A stretch of 64,000 bases of DNA from Nanobdellota archaeon (GTDB taxonomy: Archaea; Nanobdellota; Nanobdellia; Pacearchaeales; GW2011-AR1), in the NCBI GenBank assembly GCA_049324275.1, contig JBMOLG010000001.1, positions 47,606-111,605 on the forward strand, in the 5' to 3' direction. Both the position numbers and the translations under genes were made by a program. This document shows positions 7,202 to 59,332 of this stretch, piece by piece (positions within the stretch are counted from its first letter, which is position 1; every line of letters begins with the position of its first letter). The notes below the pieces were generated by a model. The model did not search any database. It had not been told where the DNA came from and saw only the letters and a program-made list of their open reading frames with translations.

Positions 7202-7546
7202 AAAAAAGATTTTTTTGCATATGGTTCTTTTGAAATCTATAATAAGATTCTATCTTATTCCGGATTAAATTTTAGAAAAAAAAGAATTTTGAGTAAAATA
7301 ATAGTCCAATGCATAACAGATGACTCTGCTAAAAATCATGAACTCTTTAAAAAACCTGAATATAAAAAGTATACCAGAATAAAAATTCTGAACTATCTAA
7401 AAATCATGCCCTCGTGGACATATTTATTTGATAATAAAATAGCGATAATCTCTTTTGAAAGAGAGCAGCCTGTGGCTATTCTTGTCAATAGCAAATCCGT
7501 TTACTTGAAAGAAAAGATGATATTTGATTTAATGTGGAAGAATTAA
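7202..7546 (+). pseudogene. N-terminally truncated paralog of the TrmB-like regulator C-terminal domain (no HTH; no ATG start)
   Basis: About 75% nt identity to nt 289-632. Protein segment KKDFFAYGSFEIYNKILSYSGLNFRKKRIL...VYLKEKMIFDLMWKN is colinear with copy 1. The frame is open from 7169 but has only a TTG start at 7289. Confidence 0.5.
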
Positions 7547-12438: not shown

Positions 12439-12891
12439 ATGAAGAATCATTTTTTATTAAGCATAGGGCTTTTAATTTTTCTTTTAGGCTTTGTAAGCGC
12501 GCAGCTTTATCAAAATTATCGTGAAACTGAATACAATTTTAATATAAAAAAAGTCTCTTCGTCTGAACAGGAGATAATTGACAATTGCAAGGATAAAGAG
12601 ATAATAAGCGCATCATATTGCTTAAAAGATAATGTCAAAACTTTTTATAAGTATAAAAAAACATGGGATTCTAATTCCCTAAATTTTTCAGAGCTAAAAG
12701 AAAATGGAGGGGATTGCAAAAACTATGCTGAACTCTACGAAAAACTTGGAACTCAGCTCGGATTTAATGCAGAAATTAGCAAAATAAAAATTGATTATAC
12801 AAAAGCTCACGCTTTTACTGTCTTGTCTAATGAGGATGCTTATTGTGTTATAGATATGTTAGATGTCAAATGCACTGAATTTGCCCATTAA
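12439..12891 (+). CDS. hypothetical secreted/membrane-anchored protein
   Basis: N-terminal hydrophobic signal-like segment LLSIGLLIFLLGFVSA. 150 aa. Confidence 0.4.
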   Translation: MKNHFLLSIGLLIFLLGFVSAQLYQNYRETEYNFNIKKVSSSEQEIIDNCKDKEIISASYCLKDNVKTFYKYKKTWDSNSLNFSELKENGGDCKNYAELYEKLGTQLGFNAEISKIKIDYTKAHAFTVLSNEDAYCVIDMLDVKCTEFAH

Positions 12892-12925
12892 TAAGTTTAT
12901 AAATATTGCAGTTAATAACAACTTA

Positions 12926-13372
12926 ATGAAACAAGAAAATTCTGCAGGAGCTTTAATATTTTATTTTGATAAGGAGCAATTCGAGCCAAATTTTCTTCTT
13001 TTAAAATATACTAATTATTGGGGATTTCCAAAGGGCTGGATTGAAAAAAATGAAACTGAAAAAGAAGCAGCTATAAGGGAAACAAAAGAGGAGACAAATT
13101 TAGATGTTGAACTGATTCCTGATTTTAAGGAGATTCAAAGATGGATTTTTCGTGCCAAGGATGAGTTAATCAAAAAAGAATGCACTTATTTTTTGGCTGA
13201 AATAAGTGAAGATGATTCAAAAAAAGTTAAGATCTCAAATGAGCATGAAGAATTTATTTTCATAACATTAGAAAAATCAAAAGAATATATCAAAATAAAA
13301 TCAAATAAAGAAATGTTAAAAAAGGCTTTTGATTTCATTAAAGAGAAAAAAAAGCAAAAAACATTATTTTAA
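12926..13372 (+). CDS. NUDIX hydrolase
   Basis: Nudix box GFPKGWIEKNETEKEAAIRETKEETNL (G-x5-E-x7-REUxEExGU). Start placed at the internal ATG 12926 rather than 12863, to avoid overlap with the upstream ORF. Confidence 0.75.
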   Translation: MKQENSAGALIFYFDKEQFEPNFLLLKYTNYWGFPKGWIEKNETEKEAAIRETKEETNLDVELIPDFKEIQRWIFRAKDELIKKECTYFLAEISEDDSKKVKISNEHEEFIFITLEKSKEYIKIKSNKEMLKKAFDFIKEKKKQKTLF

Positions 13373-16092: not shown

Positions 16093-16635
16093 TTATTCTT
16101 TTTTTAGAAATTCTCTATAACTTATCAACAATTTATTTGATGTCTTCTTAATATCGCTTAATACCTCTTCAAGTCCCGGATGAATATTGCCATAATTAAT
16201 CTCATTAGTTTTTATCCAGCAATAGCCTGAATGCTCCCAATTAAGATTAGGTTCAAAATTTAATCTTTCTTTCTTATTAATTACAAGAAGAAAAGTGTAA
16301 TAAGTTAATCTTGAATTTGCATATGCGAATGGATTTGTCAGGAGTTTTCCATTTGGCAGATATCCCATTTCTTCAAATGATTCTGCAACTGCTGTTATAA
16401 TTGGGCTTTCTAAATTATTTTTATATAATTTACTCATTCCTCCTGAAATGGAAAGAATTCCCGGATTTCTGACTCTCAAGGATCTTTCTAAGGCTAAAAA
16501 TTCTTTTGTCTCTGCTGAATAAATTAAAATGCCTGCCCCAACTTTTCTTTCAAAGTTATCTGGAATATTTTTTCCTAGAGAGTAATCTTTCAGTTGAGAG
16601 TATTGCTGATATGTTAGGGAGGAATTATTTTGCAT
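16093..16635 (-). CDS. hypothetical protein, possibly a divergent Nudix-fold protein
   Basis: GGMSKLYKNNLESPIITAVAESFEEMGY resembles a degenerate Nudix box (AExxEExGY). Last gene of a four-gene overlapping operon. Confidence 0.3.
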   Translation of the reverse strand: MQNNSSLTYQQYSQLKDYSLGKNIPDNFERKVGAGILIYSAETKEFLALERSLRVRNPGILSISGGMSKLYKNNLESPIITAVAESFEEMGYLPNGKLLTNPFAYANSRLTYYTFLLVINKKERLNFEPNLNWEHSGYCWIKTNEINYGNIHPGLEEVLSDIKKTSNKLLISYREFLKKE

Positions 16636-17464
16636 TTTGTTCTCCCGGATTAAGTTTAGTTGAATCTAATGCCCTAATATAAAATTGAGAAAACTCATTT
16701 AATCTGCTTACAGGAAATTCTATATCAAATATACTTAGAGATTCTTTTCTTGGATTAAACAAATCCCGTCGCTTATGAGCTGCATATTCAACATCTTCTA
16801 ATGTATATACTAATCTAAATAATGAATTTACATTCATTTTTCTTTCTTCCATCTGGCCAAAACGATATTCTTTGAAAAAATTTCTTAATTGATCAGAAAT
16901 AAATTCATTTGAATTTGATTTTGAAATATCTGCTTCAATGATCTCAAATCTATTGAATTCATGAATATATAGATCTCTTGCATCTCCATAATATTTGAAC
17001 GAATGAGTCCAAAAAGATTCAGAATAAAAAAATATATTTGAAACTTGCCCTTCTGAATCTATTGCTCTAAATATCAAATTATTTTCTATTCCAATCGTAT
17101 GATCTCGTGAAACAGAGCTTTGTTGATTAAAATCTCTTTCTTTTTTAAGAATGGGGACAAAAATCTTTGCATTTTCTTCTCGAAGATTCAGAAAATTAAC
17201 AAAATTAACTTTGCATGAATCTAATTGCTCCCAATCTATCAATCTGTATATGTCTGTACTTAATTCAGTAAATCTAATCAAAGGGCTCATCTGCAAATAA
17301 TTATCTCTTAATACTTGAGCTATTTCTCCCTGCTTTAAAGATTCAAAAATAGAAGCATGAAAATTTTCAACCAACAAATTTCTTTCTGGGTCAATTTGCT
17401 TTTCCTTTTCTTCTAATTGGCTAATCTTTCTTCTCAATTTTGTTGACTGTTCTTCTAAGTTCAT
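16625..17464 (-). CDS. hypothetical protein, paralog A of a tandem pair (coiled-coil N-terminus)
   Basis: Starts MNLEEQSTKLRRK. Shares FRAID...N(I/V)FFY and ExxISxSxSxxFI blocks with the upstream gene. Confidence 0.5.
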   Translation of the reverse strand: MNLEEQSTKLRRKISQLEEKEKQIDPERNLLVENFHASIFESLKQGEIAQVLRDNYLQMSPLIRFTELSTDIYRLIDWEQLDSCKVNFVNFLNLREENAKIFVPILKKERDFNQQSSVSRDHTIGIENNLIFRAIDSEGQVSNIFFYSESFWTHSFKYYGDARDLYIHEFNRFEIIEADISKSNSNEFISDQLRNFFKEYRFGQMEERKMNVNSLFRLVYTLEDVEYAAHKRRDLFNPRKESLSIFDIEFPVSRLNEFSQFYIRALDSTKLNPGEQNAK

Positions 17465-18240
17465 TTTTGTTCTATCGAGTTTGATTTAGTTGAATTGTCA
17501 TTGATTTTAACAGGATAGTCTAATCCTCTGATCAAATATTCTGTAAATTTAGATAATCCATGAAATGGATACTCTATTCCAAAAACTTTTAGTGATTCTT
17601 TCTTCGGGCTAAATATATCTGTCCTATGGTGATCGACGTACTTTGTATTTGTAACTTCAGTTTTTATTTGAAAGATTAAATCAAACTTTATCTTAGTCTC
17701 CCTTCCATCAAAATCATCAAAAAATCTTCTTGCCTGATTCAATATAAAATCTTCTGAATATGATTCTGAAATTTGCGCTTCAGCTATCTTTAATATCCTA
17801 ACGTCTCTATCCTCAAGGTCATATAGCCCTTTATCTTCAGGATAATCATAGAGATATGCCCTGGTATTGGTTGATTCACGATAAAAAAATACATTCGACT
17901 TGTTTAGATTTGCATCTATTGCCCTAAAGAAAAACTTGTCATTAGAACCAACTCTGGAATCTCTTGAATTCCCATACCTTTTGTTTAAGCTTTCAGATTC
18001 GTGTGAACATGGCATAAAACCGCCATAGTTTAGAAAATCTCCTAATTTTATTTCATAAAGATTGTTCTCCTTCTTACAAGTATCCCTGGGCAAATAGTTT
18101 TCACTTAGAATTTTTGAGATATCCTCTCCTTTCAATGATTCGAAAACTGATTGAAAAAATTTATTCTTTAGGATATTCTTTTCATTCTCTAACTGTTGTA
18201 GTTCTCTCATTAATTTTGTTGACTGTTCTTCTAAGTTCAT
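17461..18240 (-). CDS. hypothetical protein, paralog B of the tandem pair
   Basis: Starts MNLEEQSTKLMRE. The first ~27 nt are identical to paralog A. 4-nt start/stop overlaps on both sides. Confidence 0.5.
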   Translation of the reverse strand: MNLEEQSTKLMRELQQLENEKNILKNKFFQSVFESLKGEDISKILSENYLPRDTCKKENNLYEIKLGDFLNYGGFMPCSHESESLNKRYGNSRDSRVGSNDKFFFRAIDANLNKSNVFFYRESTNTRAYLYDYPEDKGLYDLEDRDVRILKIAEAQISESYSEDFILNQARRFFDDFDGRETKIKFDLIFQIKTEVTNTKYVDHHRTDIFSPKKESLKVFGIEYPFHGLSKFTEYLIRGLDYPVKINDNSTKSNSIEQK

Positions 18241-18917
18241 TTTCTTCCTCCTTCAACTCGGCTACAAAGAATATCATAGCTATCAATCTCATAACCGTCA
18301 CAAGTTTCAACGTCACAATAATCCAATTTCAGATATAATGAAGATTTCTTATCTCCAAATTTTATTTTTGGAAAATATACTGCAATCCTTGGATTGTGTA
18401 GAACGTCAATAGCTTCTCTGAGATTTTTGACTTTGCCTTTGTCAGCAATTCTACCTGGTTCTATTAACTGAACTTTTGTTTTTTCAAGTGCTTCCTCAAT
18501 TCTTTTATTTCGAAAATCTGAACCGATTACATATTTATCTATTTCTGAGTTTAATCCTAAAAGTATCCATAAAGCATGGTCTTCAAAATCTTCGGGTTGC
18601 CAGGAGCCTAAAATGCTTCTATTAGAATAATCTTCCCAATCTAAAAAGTCATGAAAATCCTCCCAATCAGACATGACTGAATTTTTTAACAAATTTCTTG
18701 CACCATGCTTCCAAGCTCTAAAATAATTCTGGTCTCTCTTTGAATAACTGGCATAAGCTTTCCCTATACCTCCTATTAATTCTACAGGGCTAAGCTTTTC
18801 CCATTCAATCTGTTGTATTTTGTTTTCCATAGTATCTTCTATGAAAATCTTAATTAATATCTTTCTGCTATCTCTAATATTAAACATATTAAAATTAGAA
18901 ATCTTTAAATAACACAA
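18237..18917 (-). CDS. hypothetical protein (first gene of the four-gene operon)
   Basis: 226-aa ORF. True start may be an internal Met (MENKIQQIEWEKL). Confidence 0.4.
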   Translation of the reverse strand: MCYLKISNFNMFNIRDSRKILIKIFIEDTMENKIQQIEWEKLSPVELIGGIGKAYASYSKRDQNYFRAWKHGARNLLKNSVMSDWEDFHDFLDWEDYSNRSILGSWQPEDFEDHALWILLGLNSEIDKYVIGSDFRNKRIEEALEKTKVQLIEPGRIADKGKVKNLREAIDVLHNPRIAVYFPKIKFGDKKSSLYLKLDYCDVETCDGYEIDSYDILCSRVEGGRK

Positions 18918-18932
18918 AGATTACATAAAATT

Positions 18933-19835
18933 ATGGAAAGAAAATTGATCAAACAAGGGATAGGCGGGCTTACATTTTATGTGCCGAACAAATGGGTAAA
19001 AGAAAGAAATCTCAAGGCAGGGGATATGATTAATGTTGAAGAGACCGAAGATAAACTTATTCTATCTAGCAAGAAATTGCAAAAGAAACAAGAGATAGAA
19101 ATAAAAATTGAAAGCGAAAGTAAAGAATTTATAAGAAATTACTTAAATCAGCTTTATCGCCTTGGATTTGATAAAATAAAAATAGAATCAAATAATTCTG
19201 AAAAGCTTTTGCTATGCCAAAAGTTTTCCCAAATGTTTCTATTAGGATTTGAAGTTACAGAAATCAAAAAAAATTTTTGCATAATAGAAAATGTTTCTGA
19301 ACCAAGCGATGAAAAACAGCCAATGATACTAAGAAGAATTTTTTTATTAATAGAAAATTCATTCGAGCTTCTTAAAAATGATTTGGCAAAAAACAAGCCG
19401 GAAAATCAAAAAGAAATCAACAGGAATACAAAAAAAGTCACTCAATATGACAATTTCCTTAAAAGAAATCTCGCAAAGAATAATTTAGCTTTCGGAAAAG
19501 AATTTTTCAATTGGGAAATCTGTAATTTTCTCTTGCTTATACAGCATTCTTTTTTTCATATTTACGAAGACTGCAATCTGGCAAAAAATGAAAAAATTTT
19601 ATATGACTTTATTTTACAGATAGAAAAAAATTTTCAGGGGATTTATGAAGCTTTTTATAAAAAAGATTTCCAAGGATTGGACGGATTTCAAAAGCAGGCA
19701 AATGATATCTTAATAAAAATTCAAAAATCCAAGTTGAAAGAAATTAATTTCTTTCATTATATCTGTGAACTTTCAAGACTGCAGTATCTTTTATGCTCTC
19801 CAATTATAAGTTCTTTTTTGACAATCAAAAACTAA
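18933..19835 (+). CDS. hypothetical protein
   Basis: 300-aa ORF. Confidence 0.4.
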   Translation: MERKLIKQGIGGLTFYVPNKWVKERNLKAGDMINVEETEDKLILSSKKLQKKQEIEIKIESESKEFIRNYLNQLYRLGFDKIKIESNNSEKLLLCQKFSQMFLLGFEVTEIKKNFCIIENVSEPSDEKQPMILRRIFLLIENSFELLKNDLAKNKPENQKEINRNTKKVTQYDNFLKRNLAKNNLAFGKEFFNWEICNFLLLIQHSFFHIYEDCNLAKNEKILYDFILQIEKNFQGIYEAFYKKDFQGLDGFQKQANDILIKIQKSKLKEINFFHYICELSRLQYLLCSPIISSFLTIKN

Positions 19836-22159: not shown

Positions 22160-22794
22160 TTGCGAACAGAGATGGCTAATATAAAAATTGTTTCTGTTGA
22201 CTTTCAAAAAGATTTTACATCAGAAAAAGGACATTGGTATAAACCCCGGCCAAGCGTAAAATTTTTGAAAAATACATTTTTGCCATTTTTAGCTAAAAAT
22301 AACATTAAGGTTGCAGAAATAATTTCTGATTATCGCCCACCAAGACTTGGAGATCCTGGAAAGGGATGTTATCCGGTCAATTTGGATATGAATCTGAAAT
22401 TCCTAAAGAGATAAAAGGAAAAAACATTTGGGTAAAATGCATGAATTCACCAATATGGATAAGGAAAAATATTGGAAATCCGAATAAAAATCCCGGCATG
22501 CCTTATCAAGATCCCAAAAAATTTTCAAAATGGGCTAAAACAACAATAGGAAATCCTAAAGAAATTGATTTTATTGCCTTAATAGGATTAACACTTGACT
22601 GCTGTGTCTCATTTGCAGCACAAGAATTAACATGGAGAGGATATAAAGTTAAAATTTTAAAGCAAGCAACTGACACATTTATTTATTCGGGAATAAAGGA
22701 AAAAGAAATAATCTTATCGACAATAAAAGCAAATCATTGGGCAGATATTATTGAGTGGAAAGATCTTAAGAATCTATGCAAAAAAAATTTTTAA
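22160..22794 (+). pseudogene. isochorismatase-family cysteine hydrolase split by a frameshift near 22366-22414
   Basis: ORF 22160..22414 carries the N-terminal VDFQKDF block. ORF 22366..22794, in a different frame, carries KxxxSxF (WVKCMNSPIW) and the catalytic-Cys block IALIGLTLDCCVSF. The two overlap by about 50 nt. Confidence 0.5.
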
Positions 22795-23449: not shown

Positions 23450-24205
23450 ATGAAAATTCCAAATCTTAAAAAAATCACAACAAATGGAAGAGCGATATAC
23501 CTGGCATATGACCAGGGGCTTGAGCATGGGCCTGCAGATTTTAATGATAAAAATGTAAATCCATGTTATATCATTGATATTGCAAAAAAAGGACGATTTA
23601 ATGCTGTAATTTTTCAAAAAGGTATTGCTGAAAAGTATCATGAAGAAATAAGAAAATCAAAAGTTCCTTTGATTGTCAAATTAAATGGAAAAACAAATCT
23701 TGTAAAAGGAGAGCCCATATCGCGATTATTATGCACAGTCGAAGAAGCATTGAAGTTAGGCGCTTCAGGGATTGGATATACAATTTATATTGGAAGTGCT
23801 CATGAAGACGTGATGCTTGAAGAGTTTGAAATAATTCAAAAAAAAGCTCATGAAAAGAATCTTCCAGTTATAGTATGGATTTATCCACGAGGCAAATCTG
23901 TTGAAAAAAAATCTTCCAAAGATTTGATGGCTTATGCATGCAGAGTTGGGCTTGAGATTGGGGCAGATATAATAAAGATTCAATATAATGGAGATAAAAA
24001 AGATTTGGAATGGGCTATAAAAAATGCAGGCAAAACAAAGGTAGTAATCGCAGGGGGAATTAAAAAAGATTCAAATGATTTGTATAAGCAAATAAAAGAA
24101 ATTATGCAGACAGGAGCAATTGGCCTTGCGATTGGAAGAAATATTTGGCAGGCAAAAAACCCGTTGGAAATAAGCGAAAAAATTAGGGGGATAATCATGA
24201 AATGA
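23450..24205 (+). CDS. fba: class I fructose-bisphosphate aldolase, archaeal DhnA type (or paralogous ADH synthase)
   Basis: LAYDQGLEHGPADF N-terminal signature, Schiff-base Lys region IIKIQY, 251 aa. Adjacent to tpiA. Confidence 0.75.
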   Translation: MKIPNLKKITTNGRAIYLAYDQGLEHGPADFNDKNVNPCYIIDIAKKGRFNAVIFQKGIAEKYHEEIRKSKVPLIVKLNGKTNLVKGEPISRLLCTVEEALKLGASGIGYTIYIGSAHEDVMLEEFEIIQKKAHEKNLPVIVWIYPRGKSVEKKSSKDLMAYACRVGLEIGADIIKIQYNGDKKDLEWAIKNAGKTKVVIAGGIKKDSNDLYKQIKEIMQTGAIGLAIGRNIWQAKNPLEISEKIRGIIMK

Positions 24206-24831
24206 AACCTACAATAATTATAAATTTTAAAACATACAAACAGGGCACTGAAGTCTTAAGATGGGCAAAGATAATTGAAAAGATTAACAGAGACATAATT
24301 ATAGGCATACAAGCAACGGATCTCTTCCAAATGTCACATAATACAAAAATAAAAATTTATGCACAACATACTGATTACTTTGAACCTGGGAGAAATACAG
24401 GATTTATTTTGCCTGAATCTTTAAAAGCGAATGGTGCAGATGGGACTTTTTTGAATCATTCAGAGCATAGGTTAGATTTCAAAGTTTTAGAAAAGACAAT
24501 TGACAGATGCAAAAAAATAAAATTAAAGACAGCAGTTTTTGCAAAAAATCTAAACGAAGCAAAAAAAATTGAAAAACTGAAACCCGACTTGCTGATAATT
24601 GAACCACCGGAATTAATTGCAGGAAATGTTTCTGTTTCAGATTCAAGACCTGAATTAATCAAGAATATTGCTAAAAGTCTTAAAACAAATTTTTTAGTCG
24701 GGGCAGGAATACATTCAAATCAAGATTTAAAGGTCGCATTGAAGTTAGGCGCTTCAGGTATTGCTTTATCATCTGCGATTATGACTTCTAAAAATCCTGA
24801 AAAAATTTTAAAAGAGTTAATTTACGGATGA
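24202..24831 (+). CDS. tpiA: triosephosphate isomerase (archaeal type)
   Basis: IINFKTY, NHSEHR (catalytic His), IIEPPELI (catalytic Glu), GAGI. 209 aa, typical of short archaeal TIM. Confidence 0.85.
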   Translation: MKPTIIINFKTYKQGTEVLRWAKIIEKINRDIIIGIQATDLFQMSHNTKIKIYAQHTDYFEPGRNTGFILPESLKANGADGTFLNHSEHRLDFKVLEKTIDRCKKIKLKTAVFAKNLNEAKKIEKLKPDLLIIEPPELIAGNVSVSDSRPELIKNIAKSLKTNFLVGAGIHSNQDLKVALKLGASGIALSSAIMTSKNPEKILKELIYG

Positions 24832-29026: not shown

Positions 29027-29210
29027 AATCAATGGCCCTGAGGGTCCTAAAAAATCTTCGATTTTTGGGAACTTCAATTATTACAAATTGAAGTGATTTG
29101 AACCTACAACCTCCAGCGGGTTCTAGGAGTCCAGCAACCAAAACACAACCTCCAGCGGGTTCTAGGAGTCCAGCAGCCTAAGAAAAAATCCAATGGCCCT
29201 GAGGGGATTT
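29027..29210. repeat. three direct copies of the tRNA-Lys 3'-end/trailer sequence plus a two-unit tandem repeat of period 39 nt
   Basis: aatccaatggccctgaggggattt at 29187-29210 is identical to 29308-29331 inside the tRNA. A degenerate copy sits at 29027-29044. 31-nt units acaacctccagcgggttctaggagtccagca at 29106-29136 and 29145-29175. Confidence 0.8.
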
Positions 29211-29314
29211 TACTCACAATTTGCATTTCAAATAATGTTAATAAGATAGTTTTTCAAAGCGAATTGCTCGCCCCCGACTAGAACTTATTTGAATTAATGT
29301 GGGTTCAAATCCAA

Positions 29315-29389
29315 TGGCCCTGAGGGGATTTGAACCCCCGACACCCAGGTTAAGAGCCTGGTGCTCTAACCGAGCTGAGCTACAGAGCC
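29315..29389 (-). tRNA. tRNA-Lys (anticodon CUU)
   Basis: Reverse complement folds as acceptor GGCTCTG/CAGGGCC, D-arm GCTC...GAGC, anticodon stem CCAGG/CCTGG with loop CTCTTAA, T-arm GGGGG-TTCAAAT-CCCCT, discriminator A. Confidence 0.85.
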
Positions 29390-40089: not shown

Positions 40090-42276
40090 TTATTTTTTAT
40101 CTTTTTTTAAATTCTTATTTTTTTCTGAGGCAGAATTTTTGGCACTTTGTTTGATAGGCTTTTCTATTGACTTAGAAACAGTTTCTAATGCATAATCAAA
40201 ATCTTCTTTTAAAATTTTTAATGACTCTGATTTTTTTATTTTGTAAAATCGCTTGATGGAATTCAGCCCTGCATTTCTACAGACTGCTTCAATATCCGCA
40301 CCAGTCCAGCCTTCTGTCTTTTCAATATATTCATTAATATTGACGGACTTATCAAGAGGCATATTTCGTGTATGCACTGCAAATATTTTTTCTCGCGTTA
40401 TTTTATCTGGAAACGGAAGCTCAAGAATAGAATCAATTCTGCCTGGCCTTAATAATGCCGGATCTATCAAATCTTTTCTGTTAGTTGCAGCAATTATTAT
40501 TACTTTTTCAAGTTCTTCAATGCCATCCAGTTCTGTAAGCAATTGATTTACAACCCTTTCTGTAGAGTCAGTCAAGGAACTGCCACGCGCTTTTGATATG
40601 CTGTCAAATTCATCAAAAAATATTATTGAAGGAGATACCTGCCTTGCTTTTTTGAAAATTTCACGAACATGTTTTTCAGATTCTCCTACCCATTTGCTGA
40701 TTAATTCAGGGCCTTTTACTGAAATAAAATTTGCATTTGCTTCATTTGCGACTGCTTTTGCCAACAGGGTTTTTCCTGTGCCAGGGGGCCCTGTCAATAA
40801 AACTCCCTTAGAAGCTTTGATTCCTGCTGAAACAAATAAGTCCGGCCTTAACAAAGGCAATTCAACCAATTCTCTTAATTTTTCCTTTGCCTCTTCCAAG
40901 CCTCCAACATCATCCCAAGTCACGTGAGGTTTTTGTATGAGGACTTCACGCATTGCCGAAGGCTCCACTGATTTAAGGCCTTCGATAAAATGATTTCTTT
41001 TTACTTTTATTTTATCCAAAATTTGTGTAGGGACTTTTTCCTGAAGATTTTTCAATTCGTTAAAATAAGGCTTAATGGACTTTAATGCCGCTTCCTTGCA
41101 GAGAACTTCGATATCTGCACCCGTAAATCCAATAGTCTTTCTTGCAATTTCTTCAAAATTCACATCTTTATCAAGGGGCATACCCCTTGTATGGATCTGC
41201 AAAATTTCTTTTCTTCCGGATTCATTAGGGGGATTAATTCTCAACTCTCTGTCAAATCTTCCCGGTCTTCTTAAAGCTTCATCAATATCATCGGGTCTAT
41301 TAGTCGCAGCCATCACGACTACTTGTCCTCTTGTTTTCAGCCCATCCATCAAAGTTAAAAGCTGGGCTACAATTCTCCTTTCTGTCTGGTCTGTTCCCTC
41401 CCCTCTTTTAGGAGCTATTGAATCAATTTCATCAATAAAAATTATTGCAGGCGCACTTTTTTCAGCTTTATCAAATACATCTCTTATATGTTTTTCAGAT
41501 TCACCATAATATTTCGACATGATTTCAGGCCCTGCTATTGAAAAAAATGCAGAATCAGTCTCATTTGCGACTGCTTTTGCCAACAGGGTTTTTCCTGTGC
41601 CAGGGGGCCCTGTCAATAAAACTCCCTTAGGGGCGCCAACCCCTAATTTTTGAAAAACTTCGGGATGCTTCATCGGCAATTCAACCATTTCTCTTATTAA
41701 TTCAATCTCTTCTTTCAAGCCCCCAATGTCTTCATACGATACGCCTGTCGCCTTTAATTCCCCGCTGTAAGGGACATCGGAAACAGTGATCTTTGTCGAA
41801 GGCGTGACAATTACATAAGTTTTTGGATTTGTTTTTGAAACTACATAACCCAATCTTGTGCCAAAGACATCAATAACTGTTTTTTGATTTTGGGCCAATG
41901 GCTTGTGCATAAGCTTTGAATGAAAATATTCTGTTGGATCATCGCTGAATCTTACCTCTTCGAGAGGGGAAAGAACAATAGATTTTGCTTCTTCAATTTT
42001 TATTTTGCTGACAACAATTTTGTCTCCAATTGAAGCGCTTATATTTGAACGCACAGTCCCATCAAGGCGAATGATATCATTTTTTTCATCTTTAAGGGAT
42101 CTCATTGCCTTGACAACGCTTGTTCCTTTAGCTTTAATTTCTAAAATATCTCCTGATACTAAACCAAAATAATCCATAACTTTAGATGGAATTCTAGCTA
42201 TTCCCTTATCAATATCTTCCTGAATAGATTCTGCAATTTCAAGCTCTATTTGATTTGGATTTTTTTCAGTTGTCAT
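40090..42276 (-). CDS. cdc48: Cdc48/VAT-type AAA+ ATPase (two AAA domains)
   Basis: Two Walker A sites [22 protein letters not shown], two Walker B sites ([18 protein letters not shown]), and an N-terminal double-psi barrel region. Confidence 0.9.
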
Positions 42277-45791: not shown

Positions 45792-45912
45792 TGAGCCTGC
45801 GCAGATTCGAACTGCGGACCCCTGCCTGTCTGAAATCAATTGATTTCGGACACCCAAAATCTTGATTTTGATGTTATCAGAGCAGTGCTCTACCTGGCTG
45901 AGCTACAGGCTC
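45792..45912 (-). tRNA. tRNA-Ile (anticodon GAU) with a ~47-nt intron at the canonical 37/38 position
   Basis: Reverse complement folds as acceptor GAGCCTG/CAGGCTC, D-arm GCTC...GAGC, anticodon stem CTGCT with loop CTGATA|intron|A, 3' stem GGCAG, T-arm CGCAG-TTCGAAT-CTGCG. The intron contains the 16-nt palindrome GAAATCAATTGATTTC. Confidence 0.75.
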
Positions 45913-47264: not shown

Positions 47265-47633
47265 TCACAAATATTCCTTCCAGTTATTTTTATGATCTTT
47301 ATACAAGACTAATCTTTCTCTTCTTTCTATTTTGCGGTGATTATAGACTTCAATGAAAACATCTGTAACATCTACAAGATATTCAGCTGAAGCTTTATTA
47401 GTTGAAGGCGATTCAAGAATAAACAGGTAATTCATGTCCTGCGAATGGCTATTAGGAATCTTAAGATTCCTTTGCTTTTTTATTTCTTTTAAAGATTCTA
47501 TTGAATAAATGTCAATAAAAAGTCCGGATCCGAATATTTCTTTCCTGATTAATTCAAGGGTTTTTTGAATTTGGAATGGCTCCAGATGAAGATGAACAAA
47601 TGCGTAAGCTTCCCCCAACCCCTTCTGATTCAT
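47265..47633 (-). CDS. hypothetical protein, paralog 1 (G-x-A-[YF]-AF family)
   Basis: 122 aa starting MNQKGLGEAYAFVHLHL. Immediately upstream of the hydrogenase large subunit. Confidence 0.35.
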   Translation of the reverse strand: MNQKGLGEAYAFVHLHLEPFQIQKTLELIRKEIFGSGLFIDIYSIESLKEIKKQRNLKIPNSHSQDMNYLFILESPSTNKASAEYLVDVTDVFIEVYNHRKIERRERLVLYKDHKNNWKEYL

Positions 47634-59233: not shown

Positions 59234-59332
59234 AAGTATTTTAAAGTCAATTGATTAACCATCTGTAAAGTTGCATCCTGCAATTGAGATGGAGGAAGTA
59301 TTTTAAAGTCAATTGATTAACCATCTGTAAAG
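59234..59332. repeat. two identical 37-nt direct repeats separated by a 25-nt spacer, in the intergenic region upstream of the 59364 gene
   Basis: aagtattttaaagtcaattgattaaccatctgtaaag at 59234-59270 and 59296-59332. Each contains the palindrome TCAATTGA. Confidence 0.8.

Follow-up and report, generated by a model that had tools for sequence, protein, structure and literature searches.

A four-gene operon in a nanoarchaeal genome

Four consecutive open reading frames (ORFs) on the minus strand, denoted g1, gB, gC and g4 in the order of reading, were analyzed together with a 32-nt sequence that is present in identical form at the starts of gB and gC. They lie in a stretch of 64,000 nucleotides, referred to here as the window (positions 47,606 to 111,605 of contig JBMOLG010000001.1), which comes from a metagenome-assembled genome (MAG) of Nanoarchaeota (DPANN) obtained from a single sample; the NCBI contig is 128,139 bp long and the GC content of the window is ~30%. 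As read from the sequence, g1 and gB overlap by 4 nt (ATGA), gB and gC again by 4 nt (ATGA), and gC and g4 by 11 nt (ATGCAAAATAA). An original prediction made from the sequence had described four genes overlapping by 4-11 nt, and the ORFs were found at the positions it gave. For g1 it had used 18237-18917, which is indeed the longest ORF, but the start annotated by NCBI lies further inside the gene and 18917 is the furthest TTG. The four genes are predicted to be a single operon in which translation is coupled where the stop codon of one gene overlaps the start of the next. The genes are as follows.

18237-18830, minus strand: g1 (NCBI ACOYT4_00450), 197 aa, orphan; NCBI start ATG at 18830
18887 or 18917, minus strand: alternative starts of g1, ATG 18887 (216 aa, Logan gene caller) and TTG 18917 (226 aa)
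17461-18240, minus strand: gB, paralog B (ACOYT4_00445), 259 aa; leucine-zipper-like helix at the N-terminus, then a beta-rich region with FRAID and SNxFFY
16625-17464, minus strand: gC, paralog C (ACOYT4_00440), 279 aa; architecture like that of gB, with insertions past residue 57
16093-16635, minus strand: g4 (ACOYT4_00435), 180 aa, predicted divergent Nudix-fold hydrolase, isoelectric point (pI) 8.8

Tandem paralogs gB and gC

The proteins encoded by gB and gC align by BLASTP with 35% identity (E 3e-44), and the alignment contains invariant FRAID and SNxFFY blocks and an invariant C-terminal H-x-R-x-D-x-F-x-P-x-KESL motif, in agreement with the diverged paralog pair that had been proposed on the basis of its FRAID/NxFFY blocks. 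Both proteins open with MNLEEQSTKL and carry a heptad pattern of L3, L10, L17 and L/I24. The coiled-coil N-terminus that had been described for them is thus retained as a short leucine-zipper-like heptad and no more than that, the helices being taken from a low-confidence model. Beyond the first 10 codons, 51 of the 93 codon pairs encoding the same amino acid are identical, as against 48.1 expected from codon usage. Considering that the synonymous sites of gB and gC are therefore saturated, the duplication is old, and gB and gC are solidly supported as diverged tandem paralogs. No further paralog of gB or gC was found in the 64-kb window, and g1, considered as a distant third copy, was rejected at an hhalign probability of 0.8%.

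An identical 32-nt tract at both paralog starts

In spite of the saturation elsewhere, the two genes are identical at their 5' ends. The first 27 nt had been reported as identical; this identity is confirmed as non-random, but its true extent is 29 coding nt, or 32 nt when the AAA immediately upstream is included. The copies of the tract and the motif that precedes the first of them are located as follows.

18212-18243, minus strand: repeat copy 1, 32 nt exact (AAAATGAACTTAGAAGAACAGTCAACAAAATT), -3 to +29 of gB; contains the TGA stop of g1
17436-17467, minus strand: repeat copy 2, 32 nt exact, -3 to +29 of gC; contains the TGA stop of gB
18247-18251, minus strand: GGAGG, Shine-Dalgarno-like, 6 nt ahead of the ATG of gB, putative ribosome-binding site

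The 32-mer occurs only twice in the window and was not recovered in any of 100 shuffles. The second-longest identical run in the gB/gC codon alignment is 11 nt, and codon-wise permutation gave a mean longest run of 12.6 nt with a probability of 1.7e-4 for a run of at least 29 nt. Inside the tract all nine full codons are identical (9/9; P = 2.8e-3 given identical amino acids). The 3' edge is sharp, and synonymous differences restart at once, within the next few codons. On the 5' side, copy 1 is preceded by the 3' end of g1 and copy 2 by the 3' end of gB. The homology between gB and gC ends at this edge, which is where a tract produced by conversion should also end.

The tandem order or the tract itself could in principle be an assembly artefact, for example two strain alleles chained through a shared k-mer, and the assembly of the genome from a single metagenomic sample leaves room for such an event. 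The reads of run SRR32167786 bear on this through their independent Logan assembly at k=31. One Logan contig (L046) carries g1 and stops 30 nt into the repeat, and another (L001), with gC and g4, begins at nucleotide 3 of the repeat. A k=31 graph has to break at precisely these points when it meets an exact repeat of 32 nt. The repeat is therefore present in the reads, and the MAG assembler did not create it. The k=31 assembly cannot order sequences across the repeat, so that the tandem order of gB and gC rests on the NCBI contig, which spans the locus in a single piece of 128 kb. Repeats make assemblers break but do not lead them to create in-frame duplications of 32 nt, and both Logan contig ends match a true 32-nt repeat to the nucleotide. 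Furthermore, allele chaining is unlikely because the gB stop sits within the repeat (ATGA) and the overlapping genes, including the 11-nt overlap of gC and g4, form a coherent operon. As such, we consider an artefact highly improbable.

Origin of the tract

The most likely explanation of the 32-nt identity is a short patch of gene conversion. Non-reciprocal copying of a short stretch, by gene conversion or a template switch, would have made the two paralog starts identical. The tract would then have arisen as a side effect of local copying, and the genome would contain several patches of this kind. In a census of exact repeats in the window, the 32-mer had company in other short patches. In a Cdc48/VCP-like gene (40090-42276, minus strand), an exact direct repeat of 70 nt (40742-40811 and 41561-41630) covers the Walker A regions of the D1 and D2 AAA domains and encodes an identical stretch of 23 residues in both, while its flanks are ~60% identical. 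The longest exact D1/D2 run in Cdc48 of two other DPANN genomes (L036 and L023) was 12 and 26 nt, and the repeat resembles the product of recent conversion within the gene. Another patch, matching at 27 of 28 nt with 23 nt exact, lies on the plus strand at 23747-23774 and 24736-24763 and encodes ALKLGASGI. It is shared by two adjacent but different TIM-barrel genes, of which one (23450-24205) is aldolase-like, of the DeoC family or class I, and the other encodes triosephosphate isomerase (TPI; 24202-24831). Since its flanks are identical only at the random level, this patch is not explained by ordinary homology, and Markov-shuffled windows contained essentially no repeated 23-mers. In all three cases (the paralog starts, Cdc48 and aldolase/TPI) the partner sequences are in the same orientation and 0.8-1.0 kb apart. 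Three such patches favor general short-patch copying over an element specific to the starts of gB and gC.

Alternatively, the tract could be kept identical by selection at the nucleotide level, either because an identical initiation region would give both paralogs equal initiation efficiency, and with it matched amounts of two subunits of one complex, or because an RNA or protein acting in trans binds both starts and co-regulates the two genes. The tract covers the start-codon region of both genes, each of which has an ATGA stop-start overlap, and gB and gC plausibly pair through their common N-terminal zipper. Whereas gB is preceded by GGAGG and g4 by GGGAG (16642-16646), the gC start has no Shine-Dalgarno-like motif, which would make gC reliant on coupling or on its own start region. 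This difference between the upstream contexts also means that initiation is not equalised between the paralogs, and initiation efficiency rarely needs identity at 32 of 32 positions including every synonymous site. No significant RNA structure was detected at either start (minimum free energies of -10.9 and -6.2 kcal/mol; z scores of +0.35 and +0.47). Efficient initiation sites would be expected to be essentially unstructured in this way, but neither this result nor the Rfam search at the tract, which gave no family, points to a specific RNA element. Comparable patches also occur away from start positions, at the Cdc48 Walker A regions and in aldolase/TPI, as a general copying process would predict. 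Selection on the tract is thus unlikely in our view, although the position on the translation start keeps it in consideration. Between the conversion event and the shared regulatory or translational element that had been offered side by side in the original prediction, the sharp 3' edge and the additional patches favor conversion, and the element is less favored given the RNA structure and Rfam results.

The Nudix protein g4

The last gene had been noted for a degenerate Nudix-like box, and this description is borne out. g4 scored 24.2 bits against Pfam PF00293 (NUDIX; gathering cutoff 21.1; E 3.7e-5), with residues 30-159 aligned to positions 2-131 of the 134 profile positions. It also matched the MutT/NUDIX family phrog_1198 (E 1e-8) and, weakly, the sequence of an Ap4A hydrolase in the PDB (5cfi; E 0.014). 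The box reads G66-x9-E76-x7-A84-E85-S-F-E88-E89-M-G91-Y92, and a regular expression for the canonical box, G-x5-E-x7-R-E-U-x-E-E-x-G-U, fails on g4. All four glutamates are kept (E76, E85, E88 and E89), the arginine is replaced by alanine, and the spacing from the first glycine to the first glutamate is 9 instead of 5. These alterations would lower the confidence in a canonical activity but not in the fold, and g4 is predicted to be a divergent member of the Nudix-fold superfamily. Since the metal-binding glutamates are retained, g4 is probably catalytic. Searched against 5.8 billion clusters by word index, g4 retrieved only itself and no close homolog. An origin of g4 from a virus was rejected, as the canonical Nudix gene of the window matches the same PHROG more strongly.

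This second Nudix gene (12863-13372, plus strand) has a textbook box at residues 58-80, and its homologs are found near the gene for the YchF-type GTPase in three related genomes (L003, L014 and L019). It is likely the house-cleaning Nudix enzyme of the organism, distinct from g4; BLASTP between the two gave an E value of 0.37, at which level they are unrelated.

Homology searches and structure prediction

Among the four proteins, the Nudix match of g4 was the sole significant family assignment. For g1, gB and gC, no match in Pfam, NCBIfam, PADLOC or PHROGs rose above noise (best PHROG match of g1, E 0.07), consistent with the earlier remark that no known system was recognized in this layout. 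The word-indexed search of the same 5.8 billion clusters with gC and g1 as queries returned self matches only. An exhaustive HMMER search of 1.84 billion representatives (standing for ~15 billion proteins) with a profile of gB and gC retrieved the two paralogs and, weakly, one repeat protein (P0004); the searches with g1 and g4 were less complete than this pass. GTDB genomes, JGI metagenomes and IMG/VR were scanned by pattern and by tblastn, and 50,697 phage records by tblastn with g1 and gC; neither yielded a homolog, and no PDB sequence was related to g1, gB or gC. At 44 loci around the YchF orthologue of related DPANN genomes (at most 75% identity), tblastn and phmmer on all ORFs revealed no counterpart of the four genes; local synteny around YchF is poorly conserved in these genomes in general.

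In the case of P0004, the profile of gB and gC matched with E 3.6e-4 summed over four repeats (hmmsearch), and hhalign aligned gB/gC to it over 32 columns with a probability of 50%, covering a single beta-hairpin motif. An Ig-like domain was not adopted for gB and gC, as one hairpin of 32 residues is insufficient for homology.

Structure prediction, suggested in the original prediction, was run with AlphaFold2 on gC and g1 and identified no fold. The mean predicted local distance difference test (pLDDT) score was 43 for gC, whose best part was a beta-meander at residues 100-180 (pLDDT 50-59), and 33.7 for g1. Both models were made without a usable alignment and are too low in confidence to use, and when the gC model was compared with the PDB by Foldseek, the matches were no better than noise (lowest E 0.08, TM ~0.2). 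All four proteins are hydrophilic and lack membrane-like segments; three are acidic and g4 is basic. g1 itself is acidic (pI 5.5), Trp-rich and soluble, with no hydrophobic segment. By their sequences, g1, gB and gC appear to be new proteins with no detectable relative, lineage-specific orphans of the kind typical of DPANN genomes.

Genomic setting of the operon

Upstream of g1, an AT-rich region separates the operon from a divergently transcribed gene.

18831-18932: AT-rich divergent intergenic region, 102 bp, between g1 and the AbrB/SpoVT-like gene
18933-19835, plus strand: AbrB/SpoVT-like gene; weak AbrB/MazE match (E 7.6e-4), under the Pfam cutoff

A TATA-like sequence, ATATTAAT, lies at 18853-18860, which is 23-30 nt upstream of the ATG at 18830, and its region is a putative promoter of g1. 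Downstream of g4, a spacer of 71 nt is followed by the gene for a YchF/YGR210-type GTPase and then by pyrB. The neighborhood contains genes for the YchF-type GTPase, PyrB, aIF5B/IF-2, ribosomal protein S6e, RadC, a PfkB kinase, the DeoC-family aldolase and TPI. The GC content of the four genes (0.28-0.34) and that of their third codon positions (0.18-0.27) match those of the adjoining genes, and with a composition like that of its neighbors the operon appears to be native. In a search for mobile-element boundaries, no convincing direct or inverted repeats were found flanking the operon; integrase-type, mobile or defence genes were likewise absent from its neighborhood, and no tRNA gene lies within 10 kb of it. 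Many genes on the Logan contigs have no Pfam match, and the same was true of all five neighboring ORFs tested (5/5). Since orphans are common in this neighborhood, a run of unknown genes is not remarkable and carries no special signal.

In the original prediction, a Nudix-like module together with coiled-coil proteins had been taken as a possible nucleotide-signalling or defence module. In this case the operon would be a conflict module for defence, counter-defence or host interaction, the Nudix protein would act on a nucleotide signal or on a derivative of NAD or ADP-ribose, and the fast-evolving orphans would serve as sensors or effectors. Three orphan partners with no homolog detected are compatible with fast evolution of an arms-race type, and the gene order is absent from the 44 YchF loci of related genomes; Nudix domains are also described in phage NAD+-ADP-ribose conflict systems (PMC9503650). 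Orphan status is the norm here, though, and the search of PADLOC-DB gave no family at E of at most 1 for any of the four proteins. The PHROG match of g4, being weaker than that of the canonical Nudix gene in the window, is non-specific. With its native composition, its housekeeping neighbors and no defence, integrase or mobile genes or flanking repeats nearby, the operon does not bear out the proposed module, and we regard a conflict function as quite improbable.

Other features of the window

Two overlapping plus-strand ORFs lie at 22160-22414 (84 aa) and 22366-22794 (142 aa), called by Logan as 80 and 142 aa. A Pfam search gave no family for either, and the idea that they are a split isochorismatase gene was dropped on this result. 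They may be one frameshifted gene or two small orphans.

Beside the tRNA-Lys gene (29315-29389, minus strand), 25 nt that run across the 3' end of the tRNA occur twice, at 29186 and 29307, 121 nt apart, and a 31-nt direct repeat is present at 29106 and 29145 with a spacing of 39. An Rfam scan of the surroundings (29100-29335) returned only the tRNA. These repeats could be an old integration scar or a duplication of a tRNA fragment. At 45792-45912 on the minus strand, a stretch of 121 nt matched the Rfam tRNA model with 52.9 bits, and ARAGORN made no call there; its length suggests an intron-containing archaeal tRNA gene.

The window also contains a 37-nt exact direct repeat, AAGTATTTTAAAGTCAATTGATTAACCATCTGTAAAG, at 59234-59270 and 59296-59332 (spacing 62 nt), and a 23-nt exact repeat at 303-325 and 7214-7236, 6.9 kb apart, within a stretch of ~75-80% identity. 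The surroundings of the latter are another, closer paralog pair.

Interpretation of the operon

Taken all together, the locus is best read as a native, lineage-restricted operon that encodes three cytoplasmic orphans and a divergent Nudix protein, in which an old duplication gave rise to gB and gC and a conversion patch covers the starts of both paralogs. We give this reading as a whole a probability of roughly 55%. Under it, gB and gC would probably work as a pair through their common leucine-zipper-like N-terminal helix, a feature from which joint action of the two is expected. g4, the only recognizable chemistry of the operon, would hydrolyse a nucleoside-diphosphate-X compound and would be made in a coupled fashion with gB and gC. 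g1 may be a further subunit or an accessory protein.

Several points weigh against this reading. The flanks of the tract are ~58% identical or unrelated, whereas classical conversion needs flanking identity. At -3 to +29, the tract coincides exactly with the translation start, a position that a constraint at the nucleotide level would also predict. In addition, one genome with no relatives cannot demonstrate concerted evolution, and both complex formation and an active Nudix enzyme are read from sequence features only.

A more unusual explanation, which we hold to be a long shot, is that the locus reflects either a previously unseen machine specific to DPANN, whose two paralog subunits are kept in step by a nucleotide-level element of their own at the starts, or short-patch copying (25-70 nt) of unusual activity. 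In the former case, the orphans and the Nudix protein with its altered box might form, for example, a cytoplasmic module for sensing nucleotide derivatives or for conflict. In the latter case, copying may homogenise stretches of 25-70 nt between nearby sequences, even barely related ones.

If the operon is native and lineage-restricted as we propose, it is one more lineage-specific operon among many uncharacterized DPANN genes, with an atypical Nudix protein as its single biochemical handle. If the patches reflect active short-tract copying, they bear on how reduced archaeal genomes maintain or reshuffle their sequence, and, as a real process, also on the fragmentation produced by metagenome assemblers with small k. 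As a single genome without comparators, the locus alone makes no long-standing question testable.

Comparison with known systems

The hairpin of bacterial Ig-like repeats (G-x-Y-Y-F-R-x-x-D-x-A-G-N-x-S, as in P0004) aligns with the FRAID...SNxFFY segment of gB and gC. In contrast to Ig-like repeat proteins, only this one hairpin aligns, the remainder of the domain does not, and gB and gC have no signal peptide. With the Nudix superfamily (PF00293, 5cfi), g4 shares nearly the full domain and the E-x7-x-E-x-x-E-E-x-G-U core, and it differs from canonical members in the displaced first glycine and in the alanine at the position of the box arginine. The Nudix systems of virus-host conflict (NAD+/ADP-ribose, NARP-type) likewise place a Nudix protein in an operon with non-housekeeping partners. 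The present locus has none of the partner families of those systems and no PADLOC or specific PHROG match, it has no mobile or viral context, and it belongs to an archaeon whose genome is reduced.

The closest comparison for the tract is the mtrA-1/mtrA-2 pair within one archaeal mtr operon, for which domain-limited, long-lasting gene conversion has been described in many species (PMC4632066). In mtrA a whole domain is homogenised across many species, whereas in gB and gC the identity covers 32 nt at the extreme 5' end in one genome, and the flanks of the tract are too divergent for ordinary homologous recombination. Both pairs are nevertheless old paralogs in a single archaeal operon, with one part homogenised and the remainder divergent. 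A conversion-like tract is a known phenomenon, and the locus shows no new kind of system.

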